DNA of 64,000 nucleotides from a virus. The stretch is taken from the IMG/VR virus record IMGVR_UViG_3300032316_000329, positions 1 through 64,000 of that record. One strand, written 5' to 3'. The translations under genes were made by a program, and so were the position numbers. The notes below the pieces were generated by a model. That model was not told where the DNA came from. It was given only the letters and a program-made list of their open reading frames with translations, and did not search any database. Shown here piece after piece: positions 25,333 through 33,438 of this stretch; positions within the stretch are counted from its first letter, which is position 1; each line of letters starts with the position of its first letter.

Positions 25333-25734
25333 ATGACCGACAAGGTAATCGAGTTTCCAAAACATAAAGTTGTTCGTGACATTCCTGGTGAGGTATTCGA
25401 AGAGAGAAATCGTAAAGCAGACCAAAAAATGGCAGATGCTTTGGTTGATGACATGGCAGGATTAATTGCAACAGAGTTGGATAACTTTGACCTTGATGTT
25501 CAAAGTAAGAGCTTTGCCAAAGACTTTATCGTGGTTGTTGATGCTTTGAAATCCGTCATCTACCGCCAATTTGGACTCAAACATCATTTCCATGACTTTG
25601 CCGATAAGAACATTTCCATTATAGATGCCGATTTCGGAACTCTTTCAAAGGAAGAAATCCAGGATAAGATTGATGAGGTAATGGCAGACCTGGTTGCCAC
25701 AAAAGAAAAACTTGACAGCGAAGCAGAAGATTGA
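25333..25734 (+). CDS. Hypothetical protein
   Basis: SD AAGGA; MTDKVIEFPK start. Confidence 0.7.
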   Translation: MTDKVIEFPKHKVVRDIPGEVFEERNRKADQKMADALVDDMAGLIATELDNFDLDVQSKSFAKDFIVVVDALKSVIYRQFGLKHHFHDFADKNISIIDADFGTLSKEEIQDKIDEVMADLVATKEKLDSEAED

Positions 25735-27718: not shown

Positions 27719-28372
27719 ATGTCCTATTTAAGGAATGACAAGGCCTATTTAAAATACTCTCCAATACATACTTTAGATATGGATGAATTGGAGAAAGTTT
27801 TAATCAATTCTTATAAAGAATGGAAAAAGGCATATAAATCCCGACATAAGTATGATCCTGCTAATTTTATTCCTATGCGTAATCTTTCGGGTGGTATTGG
27901 TGAAGCATTTGCGGAAATGCTGGCAGATGTAACCGATGGATTAAGGATAAATCCTCATCCTGATGGATATCCCGATGTTCTCCCTAATACTAAAGAAGCA
28001 AAAAACTGGATTGATACACCTACCTTAGAGAATTTCAAACAAGGTGGATTTGATATCAAGGCCAAGTATATTGGTGAGGGTAGTAAAATTGATGTGAATG
28101 CCTCGGCACATCACACACAAACAACTTCCGTTTTAAATGTTATATGGAAGTGGAAAAACAGTGTTCCTTTCATTATTGGTATTGCTTATACCGATAAATT
28201 GACTGAACAAGACTGGCCAAATCCTTCAAAAGGTAAAGCAGGTTCTAAAACCACACCATCATGTTCTATCAACAAAACAGGTAAAATAAAGTTAAGAAAA
28301 AACTGGTTGTTTATAGACGAGGAATCCGTTAATATACATGGTCTAAATAATCCTAAGGATTGGAATATATGA
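27719..28372 (+). CDS. Putative restriction-endonuclease-fold protein
   Basis: GEAFAE...GYPDVL...FDIKAK (PD-D/ExK); own promoter TTGACA-16-TATAAT at 27656. Confidence 0.55.
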   Translation: MSYLRNDKAYLKYSPIHTLDMDELEKVLINSYKEWKKAYKSRHKYDPANFIPMRNLSGGIGEAFAEMLADVTDGLRINPHPDGYPDVLPNTKEAKNWIDTPTLENFKQGGFDIKAKYIGEGSKIDVNASAHHTQTTSVLNVIWKWKNSVPFIIGIAYTDKLTEQDWPNPSKGKAGSKTTPSCSINKTGKIKLRKNWLFIDEESVNIHGLNNPKDWNI

Positions 28373-28914
28373 GATTTAGAGAACGAGCTGAAAGAGATTT
28401 CTATAGAACACCTGTTCCTGCCGTTAAACTGGCGCAGGACTTAATGGACCTAAATTTGCGTTGGTGGGAGCCTTGTGCGGGTGATGGTGCCATTAGTAAC
28501 AATCTATCAGGTATTACTTATGCTTCTGACATATATCCTATGATAAATGATATTGATACTCTTGATATGTTAACCTGTGATAAGCCTTCCAATATTGATG
28601 CTGTTGTTACAAATCCACCTTTCTTTGCTCAATATGAGTTGTTGAATCGGTGCTTAAATGAGTGGAAAATACCAGCATTATTATTGATTAGAATTGAACC
28701 ACTATCCACCCAGAAACGAAACGCATATACCAAACATCTACAAAAACTTCATATTGTTAGTAGTCTAATCAAATTTGAAACTGAAGATGGTAGAATTGTT
28801 AATGGCAATGGCACAATAAGATGTGGTTGGTGTCTCTTTACACCAGAAAAAGTTCAATATACGGAAACTAGATGGGTGACATTTCAAAAGAATGTAAACA
28901 CCCTGCCAATGTAA
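28369..28914 (+). CDS. DNA amino-methyltransferase (N6A-type)
   Basis: DFYRTP, WEPCAGDGAI, VVTNPPF. Confidence 0.8.
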   Translation: MRFRERAERDFYRTPVPAVKLAQDLMDLNLRWWEPCAGDGAISNNLSGITYASDIYPMINDIDTLDMLTCDKPSNIDAVVTNPPFFAQYELLNRCLNEWKIPALLLIRIEPLSTQKRNAYTKHLQKLHIVSSLIKFETEDGRIVNGNGTIRCGWCLFTPEKVQYTETRWVTFQKNVNTLPM

Positions 28915-28929
28915 ACAACTGATCTTGGG

Positions 28930-28996
28930 TGCGACATCCTGTCACACCCTTTCGCTGCCAGTTTACATTGACAATGCCGTTTCTTTATGCTATTCT
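28930..28996 (+). promoter_or_regulatory. Early promoter cassette 1 (palindrome + sigma70)
   Basis: TGCGACA-TCC-TGTCACA, 21 nt, TTGACA-17-TATTCT. Confidence 0.75.
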
Positions 28997-29023
28997 TAGG
29001 CATAATTAGAAAGGTATGTAAAC

Positions 29024-29203
29024 ATGAACTTGCTTATTCTCAAAGATGAAAATAAAATTGTAAAAATCCTTGCCGCTTCTACTGATATTAATGATATCCA
29101 CGAAGCCTTCCATTATGCACAAAACACCATCCTTGCCGATAACATGGATTATATAACAGCAATTGATCTCCTTAAATGCTATAAATCTAATGTAAACAAC
29201 TGA
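29024..29203 (+). CDS. 59-aa early protein MNLLILKDENK...
   Basis: SD GAAAGG; downstream of promoter 1. Confidence 0.6.
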   Translation: MNLLILKDENKIVKILAASTDINDIHEAFHYAQNTILADNMDYITAIDLLKCYKSNVNN

Positions 29204-29210
29204 TCCTTGG

Positions 29211-29277
29211 TGCGACAATCTGTCGCATCTGTTGACAAACGATTTCTCTTGCCTCTACCGTTTCCTTGTGTTAGGAT
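29211..29277 (+). promoter_or_regulatory. Early promoter cassette 2
   Basis: TGCGACA-ATC-TGTCGCA, 21 nt, TTGCCT-17-TAGGAT. Confidence 0.75.
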
Positions 29278-29283
29278 TACCGT

Positions 29284-29610
29284 ATGATAAAAACTCAAAA
29301 ACGGAAATCTCGCTCTGATCGTAAACATCTTATATACTCTTTGTCTGTAAACGGTCAAGAATATATCGGCATAACCTATGTTGAAAGGTCGGCCGTTAAT
29401 AAGTCCTTAACAAGAAGGTGGCAGAAACATGTCCGACGGGCCCTCAAAGAAAACAAAGACTGGAACCTATGCGTTGCTATACGCAAATATGGTCCTGACG
29501 CCTTTGACATTAGCGTATTGGATGTGGTTCGCGGAAAGTCCGCTGCTCACATTATTGAACGGGAATTAATTCGTAATCGTAAACCTAAACTTAATACGGA
29601 TGTAAGATAA
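29284..29610 (+). CDS. GIY-YIG-like protein (leaderless)
   Basis: HLIYSL...EYIGIT..RWQKH..AIRKYG..ERELI..LN. Confidence 0.7.
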   Translation: MIKTQKRKSRSDRKHLIYSLSVNGQEYIGITYVERSAVNKSLTRRWQKHVRRALKENKDWNLCVAIRKYGPDAFDISVLDVVRGKSAAHIIERELIRNRKPKLNTDVR

Positions 29611-29828
29611 TGAACCATCGTTTTGCTAAGAAGAACCTTGAACTCCGCATTGACACGGTTGATGCCTTGCTTTCATACTTTGAAAATGGCGGTGCTATCA
29701 CCGTTTGCAAGGCAGGTCGCCGTAGCAAGGCGAATACCTCGTTTCCTAAAGTGGTAGGTAGCGTTGCTCATAAGGGTGCTAAATCAAATAGTCTTAAAAA
29801 TGCTGGTTTTGCGAAAGGACGTGGATAA
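29610..29828 (+). CDS. Small basic early protein
   Basis: YFENGGAITVCK motif; TAATG coupling. Confidence 0.65.
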   Translation: MNHRFAKKNLELRIDTVDALLSYFENGGAITVCKAGRRSKANTSFPKVVGSVAHKGAKSNSLKNAGFAKGRG

Positions 29829-30743
29829 TGGTTGAACTAATCGTTTTTATTGTATCACTCGCCGTTCCTATCTCTCTGGCGATTATCGCAATAACATCAA
29901 GTGAGGATTAATATGTTTGCTTTAGTTTATTCAGAAGGATTTGGTGGTGATAATATTGTTATGGAAACAAGTCGCTCTTGGAATAAATTATATAAAGAAC
30001 TTGAACGACTTATAAACAAGGAAGATTATCCTTGTTGGGCCATGCAGATTGTCAATTTAGATGAAATGGAAATCGACTATGATAATTATTCTTGGAAAGG
30101 ACTGAAATTCTAATGTATAAAGATGATGAACAGATGGTACAATGCTTTGCGTTGTTTATGACCTTTGTTGGTCTGGCATTTGGTGTAGGTCTAATCGCTT
30201 ATTTTGGAGGTTAATATGGAAAAAGCAGAATATCACATTAAGAAGGCTCGCAATATACTGGATGTATATCTAGTTCTTTCTGGCGTCCTCTTAGGTCTTA
30301 CTTTGTATCCTTTTATTCGAGGTTAATATGGTTGTCTTTTATTCAGAAACGTCAATTTATGGTGAACGTCGAATTGATGCTATTACCTGGTTATACAATA
30401 CTATTCTACCAGTTGATATCTCATATTGGGCTGTTCCTGGAACTCTGGAGGATTAATATGAAGCAAGTAATCGTATCGGGTTCTTTCCGTTATGTCGCAA
30501 AACGTATTGAGGAACTTGATGCTCAAGGTTATAAAATTGTCCGATATAAACAATGGTCCGATGGTAAGTGGACTTATGTGATGGAGAAATAAAATGGCTA
30601 AGGTGAAAATTTTTAATCTGTCAATTTGGTTCAAGACCCATGATATTACATTCCGTGGTATTTCACGAACTGCGGCCTGTAGGTATATTGACCTTTATTC
30701 TAAGAAAGAAAATTATATGTCTTGGAGTATGGAGGAAAGATGA
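29828..30743 (+). other. Array of seven micro-genes (29828-29911, 29913-30113, 30113-30214, 30216-30326, 30328-30456, 30458-30592, 30594-30743)
   Basis: Abutting ORFs of 27-66 aa, most with an SD; four junctions read GAGG(A)TTAATATG. Confidence 0.65.
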
Positions 30744-30871
30744 AACGAAAGGTAAATCCTATTGCTAAGGCACTCCGCAATCCTATTTGTAAACAGCAGA
30801 TTGTCAACAGCAAGAAAGTTTACAAACGGAAACTGCGACATCCTGTCGCACTTGTTGACATACGATTATGA
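30740..30871 (+). CDS. 43-aa ArfA-like basic peptide
   Basis: SD GGAGG; MKRKVNPIAKALRNPICKQQIVNSKKVYKRKLRHPVALVDIRL. Confidence 0.5.
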   Translation: MKRKVNPIAKALRNPICKQQIVNSKKVYKRKLRHPVALVDIRL

Positions 30872-30900
30872 TTGCCTTTACCTTTGTGTTGTGTTATCCT
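30834..30900 (+). promoter_or_regulatory. Early promoter cassette 3
   Basis: TGCGACA-TCC-TGTCGCA, 21 nt, TTGCCT-17-TATCCT. Confidence 0.75.
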
Positions 30901-30929
30901 TAGACATAATCAGAAAGGATAGTAAACAG

Positions 30930-31163
30930 ATGAAACTTGTACCTCTTGCTTCAAACCAAACCGAGTTGGAATTGAATGATGGCACCGTTGTCTTTTTCTC
31001 ATACAAGACTCCAGTTGCCGCATTTATTCCCGGTCTTGGTTATTACCGCACCGAGCACAAATGGTCAGTAACGACCTCGAAACATATTAACAAATGGATT
31101 CGCGGTCAAAATTGTAATACCATCAGCCAAGATTATCTTAATAACCTCGTAGGAGTAGCATAA
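30930..31163 (+). CDS. Conserved small phage early protein
   Basis: SD GAAAGGA; VFFSYKTPVAA...WSVTTSKHINKW. Confidence 0.75.
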   Translation: MKLVPLASNQTELELNDGTVVFFSYKTPVAAFIPGLGYYRTEHKWSVTTSKHINKWIRGQNCNTISQDYLNNLVGVA

Positions 31164-31360
31164 TGTCCAGAATGTCCGATCTTGCTCTTGAAGTAGATGA
31201 GTTGGTGGTTCAGGCTATCGAGTCTGGCGCCCAGACGGAACGCCAAGTCCAAACGTATGTAAACGACCGTCTGGCGTTGACAATTGATATAGGTCAAATC
31301 AATCGCATCATAGGAGATTTCTATAGAGACGATTATTATAGTCAACACCATAACCAGTAG
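31163..31360 (+). CDS. Hypothetical protein
   Basis: SD AGGAG; TAATG coupling. Confidence 0.65.
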   Translation: MSRMSDLALEVDELVVQAIESGAQTERQVQTYVNDRLALTIDIGQINRIIGDFYRDDYYSQHHNQ

Positions 31361-31361
31361 G

Positions 31362-31427
31362 TGCGACAACGTGTCGCATCTGTTTACAAACGATTTCGCT
31401 TGCCTTATCCGTCCTTTGTGTTATAAT
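31362..31427 (+). promoter_or_regulatory. Early promoter cassette 4
   Basis: TGCGACA-ACG-TGTCGCA, 21 nt, TTGCCT-16-TATAAT with extended TG. Confidence 0.75.
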
Positions 31428-31459
31428 ATCCGTATTAAATGATGAAAAAGGAGTTAAAT

Positions 31460-32026
31460 ATGCCTAGAGTGTCCGCTTCCAATGGTGTCCGTCCTGAGAT
31501 CCGCGCCCTTGCGGTTCTTGTAATGGGTAAGACTGTTACGCCTGCCGAAATTAATGCCCATGTCGGTACTGGTGACTATGCTGCCAAGTATGTCTCGTTC
31601 CTTAATACTCGGTATGGTTTCACTATTACTGCCAACAAAGATGGCCGCAAGGTTGTCTCCTATACTATGATTGCTGAGCCTGCTAATGCTGCCGACCTTC
31701 GTGGTGCTACTCCTAAGGCACCTAAGGCCAAGGCTGTTAAGGCGCCTAAGGTTAAGACAAACATTGCTCAACCTACTTTTGTTCCTAAGGTTGCTGCCTC
31801 AACGGCAGAGATTGCCGATATCAAGGCAAAGAACCTTGAGACAATGAAAAAGGTTGCTGCTAAGTTTAAACCTACTAAGGCAACTAAGAAGGTTAGTAAG
31901 AAAAAGACCCGTGAGTTTGATGATGTTACTGAACAGTTCGGTACATCTGGTGAGGTTGGTACCTCATTCTCGGTTGAACGTGACTGGGATTCCATCGATG
32001 GTCTGGATCTTCAGAAATTGCTCTAA
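31460..32026 (+). CDS. Probable DNA-binding protein (winged-helix-like N-terminus, Lys/Ala/Pro-rich tail)
   Basis: SD AAGGAG; KAPKAKAVKAPK repeats; high-expression codon usage. Confidence 0.55.
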   Translation: MPRVSASNGVRPEIRALAVLVMGKTVTPAEINAHVGTGDYAAKYVSFLNTRYGFTITANKDGRKVVSYTMIAEPANAADLRGATPKAPKAKAVKAPKVKTNIAQPTFVPKVAASTAEIADIKAKNLETMKKVAAKFKPTKATKKVSKKKTREFDDVTEQFGTSGEVGTSFSVERDWDSIDGLDLQKLL

Positions 32027-32042
32027 TATCAGGAGTGCTAAC

Positions 32043-32390
32043 ATGGCCTATATGAAGTTCCGTTATAAGACTACACGTAATCCCAGTAACTCTGGTGTTT
32101 ATCCGTGTCCGTCAGAGGCAGAATATATTGGCCATGTTTTACGTTTTTCATGGTTGTCCGAGAATGAATTTGGTTTAACTACAGGTGATATAGATGCTCC
32201 AGTCCGCATACTTGATAAACGAAACATTATTAAAGCATGGATCGACCGGTCAAATCGTGGCGATAATGTTAAAATCGTTGATAAAAAATATGTTGTAACT
32301 GCTGGTCAATTCAATCGTTATTCGTGTACCTGTACCGCATATAAATGGCGTAAGAAATGTTCTCATACTGATGAGGTGAAACATGCCTGA
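32043..32390 (+). CDS. SWIM Zn-finger protein
   Basis: YSCTCTAYKWRKKCSH; SD AGGAG before 32043. Confidence 0.75.
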   Translation: MAYMKFRYKTTRNPSNSGVYPCPSEAEYIGHVLRFSWLSENEFGLTTGDIDAPVRILDKRNIIKAWIDRSNRGDNVKIVDKKYVVTAGQFNRYSCTCTAYKWRKKCSHTDEVKHA

Positions 32391-32568
32391 GTTTCTGTCT
32401 AAAGATCCTGCGAAGGCATTAGTTGAGGTTAAAGAAAAGTTGTATGAACGGATTGATATACTCCGTTCTTGTATTAGTCCTGATGGTCCTATTGATCGTC
32501 TAGACCACCACTTTAATAATGAGGTAGAGTTTCTTACCGATATATTGGACTTAATCGAGAGGTCATAA
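32383..32568 (+). CDS. Hypothetical protein
   Basis: SD GAGGTG. Confidence 0.6.
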   Translation: MPEFLSKDPAKALVEVKEKLYERIDILRSCISPDGPIDRLDHHFNNEVEFLTDILDLIERS

Positions 32569-32894
32569 TGGGTCCCAATCAGGCAGCAAGATTACTTATT
32601 ATGTCGGCCTATTTGTATTATCGATGTGATACAAATGTTATTGATGATGGTGAATATGATAAACTATCTTTATATGTTGCTAAGAACTGGGATAAACTGG
32701 ATAGCCAATTACAATGGCAGTTGGTGGACGCCGATGCTATTCGTGCTACTGGTAGTGGTATACTTATTACACAGATGGGCGTAGGTGCTGCCCTTGCCTG
32801 GTATAAAAAGAAGAAGAACAAAAACCTTAAAGGGTATAAAATGGATTGGATAGGTCCTCATCCTGAATTTAACTGTTTATATGCGGTGATATAA
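32568..32894 (+). CDS. Protein resembling NAD-ligase N-terminal (Ia) helical domain
   Basis: AYLYYRCDTNVIDDGEYD resembles YY..D.P.isD.EYD. Confidence 0.55.
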   Translation: MGPNQAARLLIMSAYLYYRCDTNVIDDGEYDKLSLYVAKNWDKLDSQLQWQLVDADAIRATGSGILITQMGVGAALAWYKKKKNKNLKGYKMDWIGPHPEFNCLYAVI

Positions 32895-32895
32895 T

Positions 32896-33438
32896 ATGAA
32901 TATGTTTTATCTTTCTACTCGTCCTCATGAATGTGCGGAATGGTCCGTCAATTCTCATTGTGTTAAGATGATCCTTGAGAGTGCCCAACTACTATCAACC
33001 GCACATCGGTTGCTCGACGGTGTAGAGTATACCGACAAGACAAAGACAGGTCGCAATATAAAGCGTTGGCGCCTGGAAGACTGGCGTGAGAATAAACTTT
33101 ATTCTGCTACGCATATTAATCATCCTTGTGCTGTGTGGTGCCGTGAGAACTCTGCTAACTATCGCTGGTTACATGACCTTACAATAGAGTATTGCCGCGA
33201 ATATACCTATCGTTATGGCAAAACGCATAAGATTGAAGAGACAGGTCTATTATCGGACCTATCGATGTCGCCACATAATATAAAAAGATCCACTTTAACA
33301 ACACCTCCAAGTGCCATGGATCCTAAATATATCATATCAAAAGATCCGATAATCAACTATCGGAACTATTACAAGGTCGGTAAGACGCACCTACATAAGT
33401 GGAAGAACCGTCAGCCGCCAGCATGGATTATGGAGTGA
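32896..33438 (+). CDS. Pyrimidine-dimer glycosylase (DenV-related) family protein
   Basis: MNMFYL, HCVKMILESAQLLSTAH, THINHPCAVW, EYTYRYGKTH, YRNYY. Confidence 0.75.
   Translation: MNMFYLSTRPHECAEWSVNSHCVKMILESAQLLSTAHRLLDGVEYTDKTKTGRNIKRWRLEDWRENKLYSATHINHPCAVWCRENSANYRWLHDLTIEYCREYTYRYGKTHKIEETGLLSDLSMSPHNIKRSTLTTPPSAMDPKYIISKDPIINYRNYYKVGKTHLHKWKNRQPPAWIME

Follow-up and report, generated by a model that had tools for sequence, protein, structure and literature searches.

T4-like phages are thought to begin infection from strong constitutive sigma-70 promoters. T4-like cyanophages carry sites for global regulators of their hosts in promoters of their own, namely, PhoB boxes in S-PM2d and P-SSM2, with binding demonstrated by electrophoretic mobility shift assay (PMC10976474), and NtcA sites (PMC3037559). 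These lytic phages are the closest functional precedent for the element described here, a 17-bp palindrome (TGCGACA-N3-TGTCGCA) located upstream of predicted early promoters in the first 64,000 nucleotides (hereafter, the window) of IMG/VR record IMGVR_UViG_3300032316_000329, a single contig of 165,114 bp with 38.8% G+C. The cyanophage boxes act under nutrient stress and control, for the most part, auxiliary metabolic or replication genes, whereas here the sites mark a cluster of early promoters and the regulator is putatively RegA, which responds to redox or energy state. Host-regulator boxes in phage promoters were already known; here they would be of the RegA family, at phased positions before a class of early promoters. 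The sequence data lean, though not strongly, toward activation by host RegA of a distinct class of early promoters with weak -35 elements.

The palindrome occurs at positions 28930, 29211, 30834, and 31362, where the original prediction had placed it, with one mismatch in the first copy and none in the other three. Scanning the window with up to two mismatches returned exactly these four matches (0.11 expected), a number that none of 100 shuffled sequences reached. A genome-wide scan, proposed along with that prediction, added a fifth perfect copy beyond the window, at genome position 147365, making five in the 165-kb genome. As had also been claimed, all four copies in the window end 21 nt before a -35-like hexamer, i.e., TTGACA at 28968 (promoter P1) and TTGCCT at 29249 (P2), 30872 (P3), and 31400 (P4). 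A spacer of 16 to 17 nt and a TG-extended -10 hexamer follow (TATTCT, TAGGAT, TATCCT, and TATAAT, respectively), and small genes lie downstream of all four units on the plus strand. Computed from these predicted hexamers, the palindrome is centered near -65. A generic promoter scanner, which counted 20 sigma-70-like matches in the region against 17.6 and thus no general excess, flagged only the promoters at 28968 and 31400; P2 and P3 therefore rest on their TG extensions and on the conservation of the -35 and -10 elements in relatives.

The core of the palindrome had been likened to the RegR/RegA/PrrA/ActR box, and the fit turned out to be better than claimed. We tallied position by position the 33 15-mers in Table 2 of a chromatin immunoprecipitation sequencing (ChIP-seq) study of Rhodobacter capsulatus RegA (PMC5359404), which include GCGACCGTTCGTCGC before ccoN and both CGGACAAAATGTCGC and GTGACAATTTGTCCC before cydA. 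The outcome was GCG(A/T/C)CA-N3-(T/C)G(T/G/A)CGC, and at every one of its 12 specified positions the plurality base is also that of the phage core, GCGACA-N3-TGTCGC. The palindrome likewise equals the best site of Caulobacter crescentus SpdR, CTGCGAC-N5-GTCGCAG, in all but the outermost pair (PMC4830024). The RegR boxes of Bradyrhizobium japonicum start with TGCGTCA, TGCGACA, or TGCGGCA (PMC4064962), so that a TGCG(A/G/T)CA left half is common to them and to the phage element. Inverted repeats GCGNC-N5-GNCGC characterize the sites of the whole RegA/PrrA/RegR/ActR/SpdR family, and the chief variable position of the phage arm, position 5 (A to T), coincides with the degenerate position of the RegA sites. 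Location matches as well, with a predicted center near -65 in the phage promoters and an element at about -67 from which RegR activates the fixR-nifA P2 promoter whatever the oxygen condition (PMC4064962). Wiring of the early genes to host redox state, as initially proposed, does not follow from the box, given this oxygen-independent action of RegR. The cellular sites are degenerate, variably spaced, and seldom perfect, whereas the phage sites are near-perfect, multicopy, and strictly phased; furthermore, they precede early genes of no assigned function and not genes for respiration or photosynthesis.

Baseplate, ribonucleotide reductase, and virion genes place the phage, a myovirus from a lake, in the T4 superfamily. 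Its closest relatives are Pelagibacter phage HTVC008M, Methylophilales phage Melnitz, and cyanomyoviruses, with protein identities of merely ∼35 to 38%, and comparison of window positions 28000 to 33000 with the phage collection yielded neither near nor distant DNA matches. The genome carries pmoC, and the encoded protein shares 93% identity with its counterparts in Methylocystis and other Beijerinckiaceae. Complete pmoC-phage genomes of 160 to 168 kb and 37 to 40% G+C have been assigned to Methylocystis in a paper that contains no promoter analysis (PMC7674155). On account of this one host-derived gene and the pmoC-phage literature, the host is most probably an alphaproteobacterial type II methanotroph, Methylocystis, in agreement with the alphaproteobacterial host guessed beforehand. 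Methylocystis parvus encodes a 200-aa ActR/PrrA/RegA orthologue (open reading frame [ORF] L129:1474-2076, minus strand) that scores 316 bits against NF033791 (cutoff, 250 bits), and the PrrA effector domain structure 1UMQ has exactly the same helix-turn-helix stretch, NVSETARRLNMHRRTLQRILAKR. The presumed host genus, as derived from PmoC and PMC7674155, is therefore endowed with a regulator that has the conserved recognition helix. The same family exceeded the cutoff in 74 of 151 sampled alphaproteobacterial genomes, a set that takes in one unpublished genome (G042) lacking an over-cutoff match. Fis-type helix-turn-helix domains (HTH_8) were sought in the phage and gave no match.

Relatives were retrieved with the 188-aa winged-helix gene located behind P4 and comprise 18 IMG/VR loci with 64 to 77% protein identity. 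All 18 have one to five palindromes in an unchanged layout, and in all 18 P4 is found 5′ of the winged-helix homologue. A relative of 164 kb (94% complete) carries four copies in the early cluster and another one ∼41 kb away, among tRNA genes, where a very different A-rich spacer of 20 nt leads to TTGACT. Arm positions 1, 2, and 4 are invariant over 132 half-sites, whereas 115 of them have A and 16 have T at position 5. The 462 stem pairs inspected divide into 433 consensus, 22 broken, 7 G-T, and no compensated pairs, and flank pairing beyond the stem is no better than with shuffled flank partners. In an alignment of 25 units (A2), the invariant blocks are the arms, TTG.C of the -35 element, and TG plus TA...T of the -10 element, and nothing else. 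Because the letters of the arms are kept, no pair is compensated, and only promoter blocks are otherwise invariant, the pattern is that of a site read by its sequence and not of a hairpin.

These counts bear directly on the resemblance of the locus to promoter-early stem-loops (PeSLs), which have been described in the T4-type phages RB49/phi1, PST/T4, and nt-1/KVP40 with stems that vary in sequence and are read as terminators (PMC2839356, PMC4122927). In both cases, composite units recur within the variable early part of a T4-like genome, and their content differs among close relatives. The layout is likewise that of published PeSLs, i.e., a stem-loop 5′ of a sigma-70 early promoter, a ribosome-binding site, and a start codon, repeated between small ORFs. 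Accordingly, the palindrome could be an RNA or DNA hairpin that ends or stabilizes the upstream transcript, within a unit serving mainly early-gene recombination and shuffling; no protein would be dedicated to reading the palindrome sequence. The predicted RNA folding energies of the copies are -10.5 to -14.8 kcal/mol (z-scores of -2.7 to -3.4); the upstream ORFs stop 2 to 16 nt before copies 1, 2, and 4, and therefore no other terminator fits there; cassette numbers and spacings vary between relatives; and a homing endonuclease gene has landed within the fifth cassette. However, letters and not pairing are conserved, with 22 broken and no compensated pairs and no extension into the flanks, and the stem is not followed by a T-run (tails, TCTGTTGACA, CTTGTTGACA, TCTGTTTACA, and CCCTTTCGCT). 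On the plus strand, a terminator scan recovered nothing but a shifted 6-bp stem for copy 4, and its sole full-stem match (copy 3) is opposite to the gene strand. PeSL stems are made of G/C runs or of A/G-T/C runs, whereas the phage arms are letter-invariant across relatives diverged to 44 to 77% identity and phased to the -35 element, a fixed helical phase that a terminator would not need. Moreover, a phage lineage unrelated to this one has the identical 14 letters. We thus consider this explanation quite improbable. The hairpin or terminator reading itself found no support in pair counts, flank complementarity, or tail composition. The phage uses a canonical terminator after its pmoC operon. 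Hairpin promoters of the N4 virion-polymerase type (7-bp stem, 3-nt loop) were dropped as candidates, since the phage is a T4-superfamily myovirus with no giant virion RNA polymerase. The repeated cassettes may still double as PeSL-like recombination points for early-gene shuffling, which would be compatible with RegA action at the palindrome.

The spacing between palindrome and promoter suggests what kind of protein reads the site. Over 66 non-identical units, the gap to the -35 element was 21 nt in 50, 20 nt in 5, 0 nt in 5, 11 nt in 1, and 31 nt in 1; many of the 21-nt units are copies of each other, still with at least seven different spacer sequences, several of them unrelated. All gaps are steps of one helical turn, which sets the centers near -44, -55, -65, or -75 as calculated from predicted hexamers. 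Since the gaps fall on one helical face, the pattern is that of an activator that needs to face RNA polymerase, and the activator-type position ascribed earlier to the element is supported to the extent that the predicted hexamers fix its center near -65. Class I and class II promoters of the CRP paradigm have a dimer site on one helix face at around -44, -55, -65, or -75 and a weak -35 element; likeness of the phage promoters to these is by geometry alone. The hexamers of the palindrome promoters are suboptimal (TTGCCT, TAGGAT, and TATCCT), and many perfect TTGACA-17-TGnTATAAT promoters without a palindrome exist in the genome, at window positions 25712, 37727, and 38825 and genome positions 127833, 130124, 131410, 147989, and 162893. 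Because the palindrome promoters are weaker than these, the genome contains two classes of predicted promoters, of which the palindrome-free one is presumably activator independent.

In the mechanism that we favor, the 17-bp palindrome would be the optimal site for the RegA-family response regulator of Methylocystis, a dimer with a Fis-type helix-turn-helix. It would be placed on one helix face near -65 (elsewhere in the lineage at -44, -55, or -75), 5′ of sigma-70-type early promoters combining a suboptimal -35 element (mostly TTGCCT or TTGACT) with a TG-extended -10 element. There, RegA would recruit or stabilize host RNA polymerase at once and drive the small-gene early cluster at 28.9 to 33 kb; such immediate action would be possible because RegA is present before the phage DNA arrives. 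The phage thus probably borrows the host activator RegA/SpdR. We infer all three components of this scheme, namely, RegA binding, activation rather than repression, and any dependence on phosphorylation or redox state.

Several observations weigh against RegA as the reader. The host is inferred solely from PmoC similarity and the literature. Perfect cores are scarce in Methylocystis genomes, at ∼1 each, and five small RegA-bearing alphaproteobacterial genomes that were searched contained no perfect core. The relaxed pattern GCGWCA-N3-TGWCGC gave 24 matches, versus 6 for a control, in three Methylocystis genomes (L100, L101, and L106, i.e., M. parvus, Methylocystis rosea, and Methylocystis sp. 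JAN1), and in these three genomes the conserved intergenic matches do not lie before classic RegA targets. One of them, a near-perfect copy (CGCGACA-N3-TGTCGCA), is intergenic, has A/T-rich surroundings, and in all three species precedes an MsbA-related ABC transporter gene (TIGR02204) by ∼40 to 180 nt; in M. rosea, a relaxed site adjoins hpnN. The cultured pelagiphages HTVC027P and HTVC023P hold no copies. Two of the large pmoC-phage records with alpha-type PmoC (G161 and G162) hold six sites each, and six with gamma-type PmoC hold none; neither do the complete alpha-type PmoC phages G163 and G164, and the box is for this reason a lineage trait, not general to phages of this host. Across these pmoC phages, palindrome and winged-helix gene co-occur exactly, both being present in G161 and G162 and neither in G163, G164, and the six gamma-type phages. 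Finally, a conserved GTT(T/G)ACA box between the palindrome and the -35 element falls outside the RegA account.

The co-occurrence gives substance to the phage-encoded activator that the original prediction had left as its alternative. A phage regulator would bind the palindrome, the candidate being the 188-aa winged-helix protein (31460 to 32026) made from P4, which would feed back on its own and the sister promoters as a delayed activator or an early shutoff factor. The protein has no Pfam or PHROG match. Its AlphaFold model shows a helix-helix-helix-hairpin arrangement, i.e., a winged helix, at residues ∼11 to 80 (predicted local distance difference test [pLDDT], 75 to 87), and the solved folds that come closest to it are winged helices of the ArsR/MarR and forkhead types, with weak E-values of 0.05 to 0.2. 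In every relative found, the best-conserved palindrome promoter is immediately followed by the gene, and distant homologues with 44 to 50% identity (loci L145, L158, and L196) also accompany the palindrome. This co-occurrence is, however, equally expected from the shared descent of one lineage. The presumed recognition helix (residues 41 to 51) varies among homologues, while the palindrome does not; marine HTVC023P-like contigs, which are fragments, show dense palindrome arrays without a winged-helix homologue even by profile search; and HTVC008M has four near-sites, one of them adjoining a promoter, but no winged-helix homologue. A protein made from an early gene could not be the one that first switches on the promoter class it depends on, a repressor would not usually have phased sites at -65 or -44, and the identity of the site with the RegA/SpdR optimum would be a coincidence. 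The phage protein is thus a concrete candidate, yet an unlikely reader of the palindrome, and RegA remains the favored one. When the element was compared with a Cro/CI-type repressor operator, which would overlap the core promoter and adjoin its cognate DNA-binding gene, the 17-bp 7-3-7 geometry fitted and the winged-helix gene did follow P4, but the sites are upstream of the core promoter and phased. The layout of the protein, with a very conserved N-terminal domain, a variable Lys/Ala(/Pro)-rich linker, and a conserved acidic tail (FDDVTEQFG...DWDS), recalls linker histones, and it is present in all relatives found. Another possible phage regulator is encoded in the same operon, a 180-aa early protein (32896 to 33438) that matches phrog_624 "DNA binding protein" (E value, 7.6e-48) and no Pfam family.

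The GTT(T/G)ACA box (complement, TGTAAAC, for the T form) is found 3 nt past the palindrome in most units. Of 69 units, 52 have either GTT(T/G)ACA or TGTAAAC in the upstream 45 nt, against a genome background of 0.013 per 45 nt, and 10 of the genome's 19 plus-strand copies of TGTAAAC fall in these few kilobases. Positions of this second box are 27639, 28893, 28910, 29017, 29191, 29231, 30788, 30854, 31258, and 31382 in the window and 147290 and 147354 in the genome. It may be bound by the winged-helix protein, be contacted by polymerase, or act as a decoy -35 element. GTAAACA is the forkhead winged-helix consensus, and a winged-helix gene adjoins.

A host protein other than RegA could also read the palindrome, either a different Fis-type response regulator or an uncharacterized dimeric helix-turn-helix factor common to the hosts. 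Each Methylocystis genome encodes eight HTH_8 proteins, NtrC-type sites have a 7-3-7 geometry likewise, and palindrome-bearing relatives without pmoC may have other hosts; furthermore, a single site with two mismatches precedes a promoter in Melnitz, which infects an OM43 methylotroph. On the other hand, we know of no other described alphaproteobacterial regulator with this half-site, and the match is complete to three independent RegA-family data sets (RegA, SpdR, and RegR). Such a factor therefore has, in our judgment, little chance of being the reader, and host RegA is retained as the favored one.

The palindrome is also found outside this lineage. An exact-pattern scan of IMG/VR was set against a reversed control of the same composition; all figures that follow are among the matches listed, and the totals are not comparable. 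At least two copies were present in 19 of 117 palindrome loci and in none of 120 reversed-control loci, and TTGAC or TTTAC lay within 40 nt of 77 of 143 palindrome sites versus 11 of 120 control sites. A/T makes up 74% of the three central bases in the palindromes (43% in the control), and the mean G+C content of the loci is 42% (57% in the control). Besides the T4-like relatives, the multicopy loci are marine contigs (L219, L229, L137, L183, L188, and others) with DNA ∼70% identical to Pelagibacter phages HTVC027P/HTVC023P. These contain up to six sites in 4.9 kb and, spaced at 37-bp steps, three exact copies, and their palindromes have A/T-rich centers, often come after a GTGGGACCCGCCCAC hairpin, and often adjoin TTGAC. 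BLASTP of all ORFs and the winged-helix profile revealed no trans factor shared by the phage and the marine contigs, which is weak evidence because these contigs are fragments. As a tentative extension, on which we place clearly less confidence, perfect RegA/SpdR boxes might constitute a general plug-in enhancer of alphaproteobacterial phages. Unrelated freshwater T4-like methanotroph myoviruses and marine HTVC023P-like podoviruses would then have independently placed the optimal site of a universally conserved regulator, in phase, before their first-expressed promoters, and the strength of the takeover would be determined by host energy or redox state at the time of infection.

The four units in the window differ in detail. 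Copy 1 (28930 to 28946; TGCGACA-TCC-TGTCACA) has its single mismatch in the right arm and is followed by a GTTTACA box (28961 to 28967, plus strand) immediately 5′ of the -35 element of predicted promoter P1 (28968 to 28996, plus strand; TTGACA, 17 nt, TG-extended TATTCT), which serves a 59-aa ORF (29024 to 29203) through a leader with a ribosome-binding site. The 17-mer AATGTAAACAACTGATC (28906 to 28922 and 29187 to 29203) closes two different ORFs in different frames just 5′ of palindromes 1 and 2; since two ORFs read it in two frames, it is conserved as DNA and not as protein. Perfect copy 2 (29211 to 29227) and a GTTGACA box 3 nt past it (29231 to 29237, plus strand) precede predicted promoter P2 (29249 to 29277, plus strand; TTGCCT, 17 nt, TG-extended TAGGAT). 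The P2 unit is headed by a 108-aa GIY-YIG-like gene (29284 to 29610, plus strand) and continues with small ORFs to ∼30743. Only 6 nt separate the -10 hexamer of P2 from the ATG at 29284, and the mRNA of the GIY-YIG-like gene is for this reason probably leaderless. Several relatives' cassettes carry ATGATGAAAAC at the equivalent place (window 29272 to 29286; alignment A2), and other cassettes have a leader of ∼30 nt containing AGAAAGG.

Perfect copy 3 (30834 to 30850) overlaps the 3′ end of a small Lys/Arg-rich ORF of 43 codons (30741 to 30871), which spans the palindrome and stops at the -35 element of P3, a case of coding/regulatory overlap; relatives L010 and L015 repeat the upstream text GTTTACAAACGGAAAC before the palindrome, as in this ORF. 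A GTTGACA box (30854 to 30860, plus strand) lies 3 nt past the copy, ahead of predicted promoter P3 (30872 to 30900, plus strand; TTGCCT, 17 nt, TG-extended TATCCT), and the P3 unit (30930 to 31360, plus strand) consists of a 77-aa gene (phrog_5643; 30930 to 31163) and a 65-aa gene (31163 to 31360). Perfect copy 4 (31362 to 31378) begins 2 nt past the stop codon of the upstream gene, and a GTTTACA box (31382 to 31388, plus strand) again follows after 3 nt. Predicted promoter P4 (31400 to 31427, plus strand; TTGCCT, 16 nt, TG-extended TATAAT) leads to the 188-aa winged-helix gene (plus strand), whose product is the candidate phage DNA-binding rival of RegA.

The fifth copy, at genome position 147365, lies just past the terminator of the pmoC/small-peptide operon and directly adjoins a -35-like TTGACT. 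A 613-bp insert (genome 147383 to 147995; L001:4383-4995) splits this palindrome from its promoter; it holds a GIY-YIG homing endonuclease gene on the minus strand and shows a TTGAC -35 element at both junctions. In relative L149, which is 94 to 98% identical around the copy, the palindrome is directly joined to TTTACA-17-TATAAT before the next gene, and this uninterrupted form indicates that the insertion occurred inside the promoter of the fifth cassette.

If host RegA does act at these promoters, the phage would offer the cleanest collection of optimal RegA sites found in nature, including built-in spacing variants with which the contact between RegA and RNA polymerase could be studied. The recognition helix of RegA is invariant across the Alphaproteobacteria and the box is found in pelagiphage-like contigs, and the idea is thus testable without phage culture. 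A lytic methanotroph phage would, on this account, sense the respiratory or energy status of the host cell upon entry. Methanotrophs of lake oxyclines live where RegB/RegA signaling changes, and such a response could therefore shape when pmoC phages are productive.

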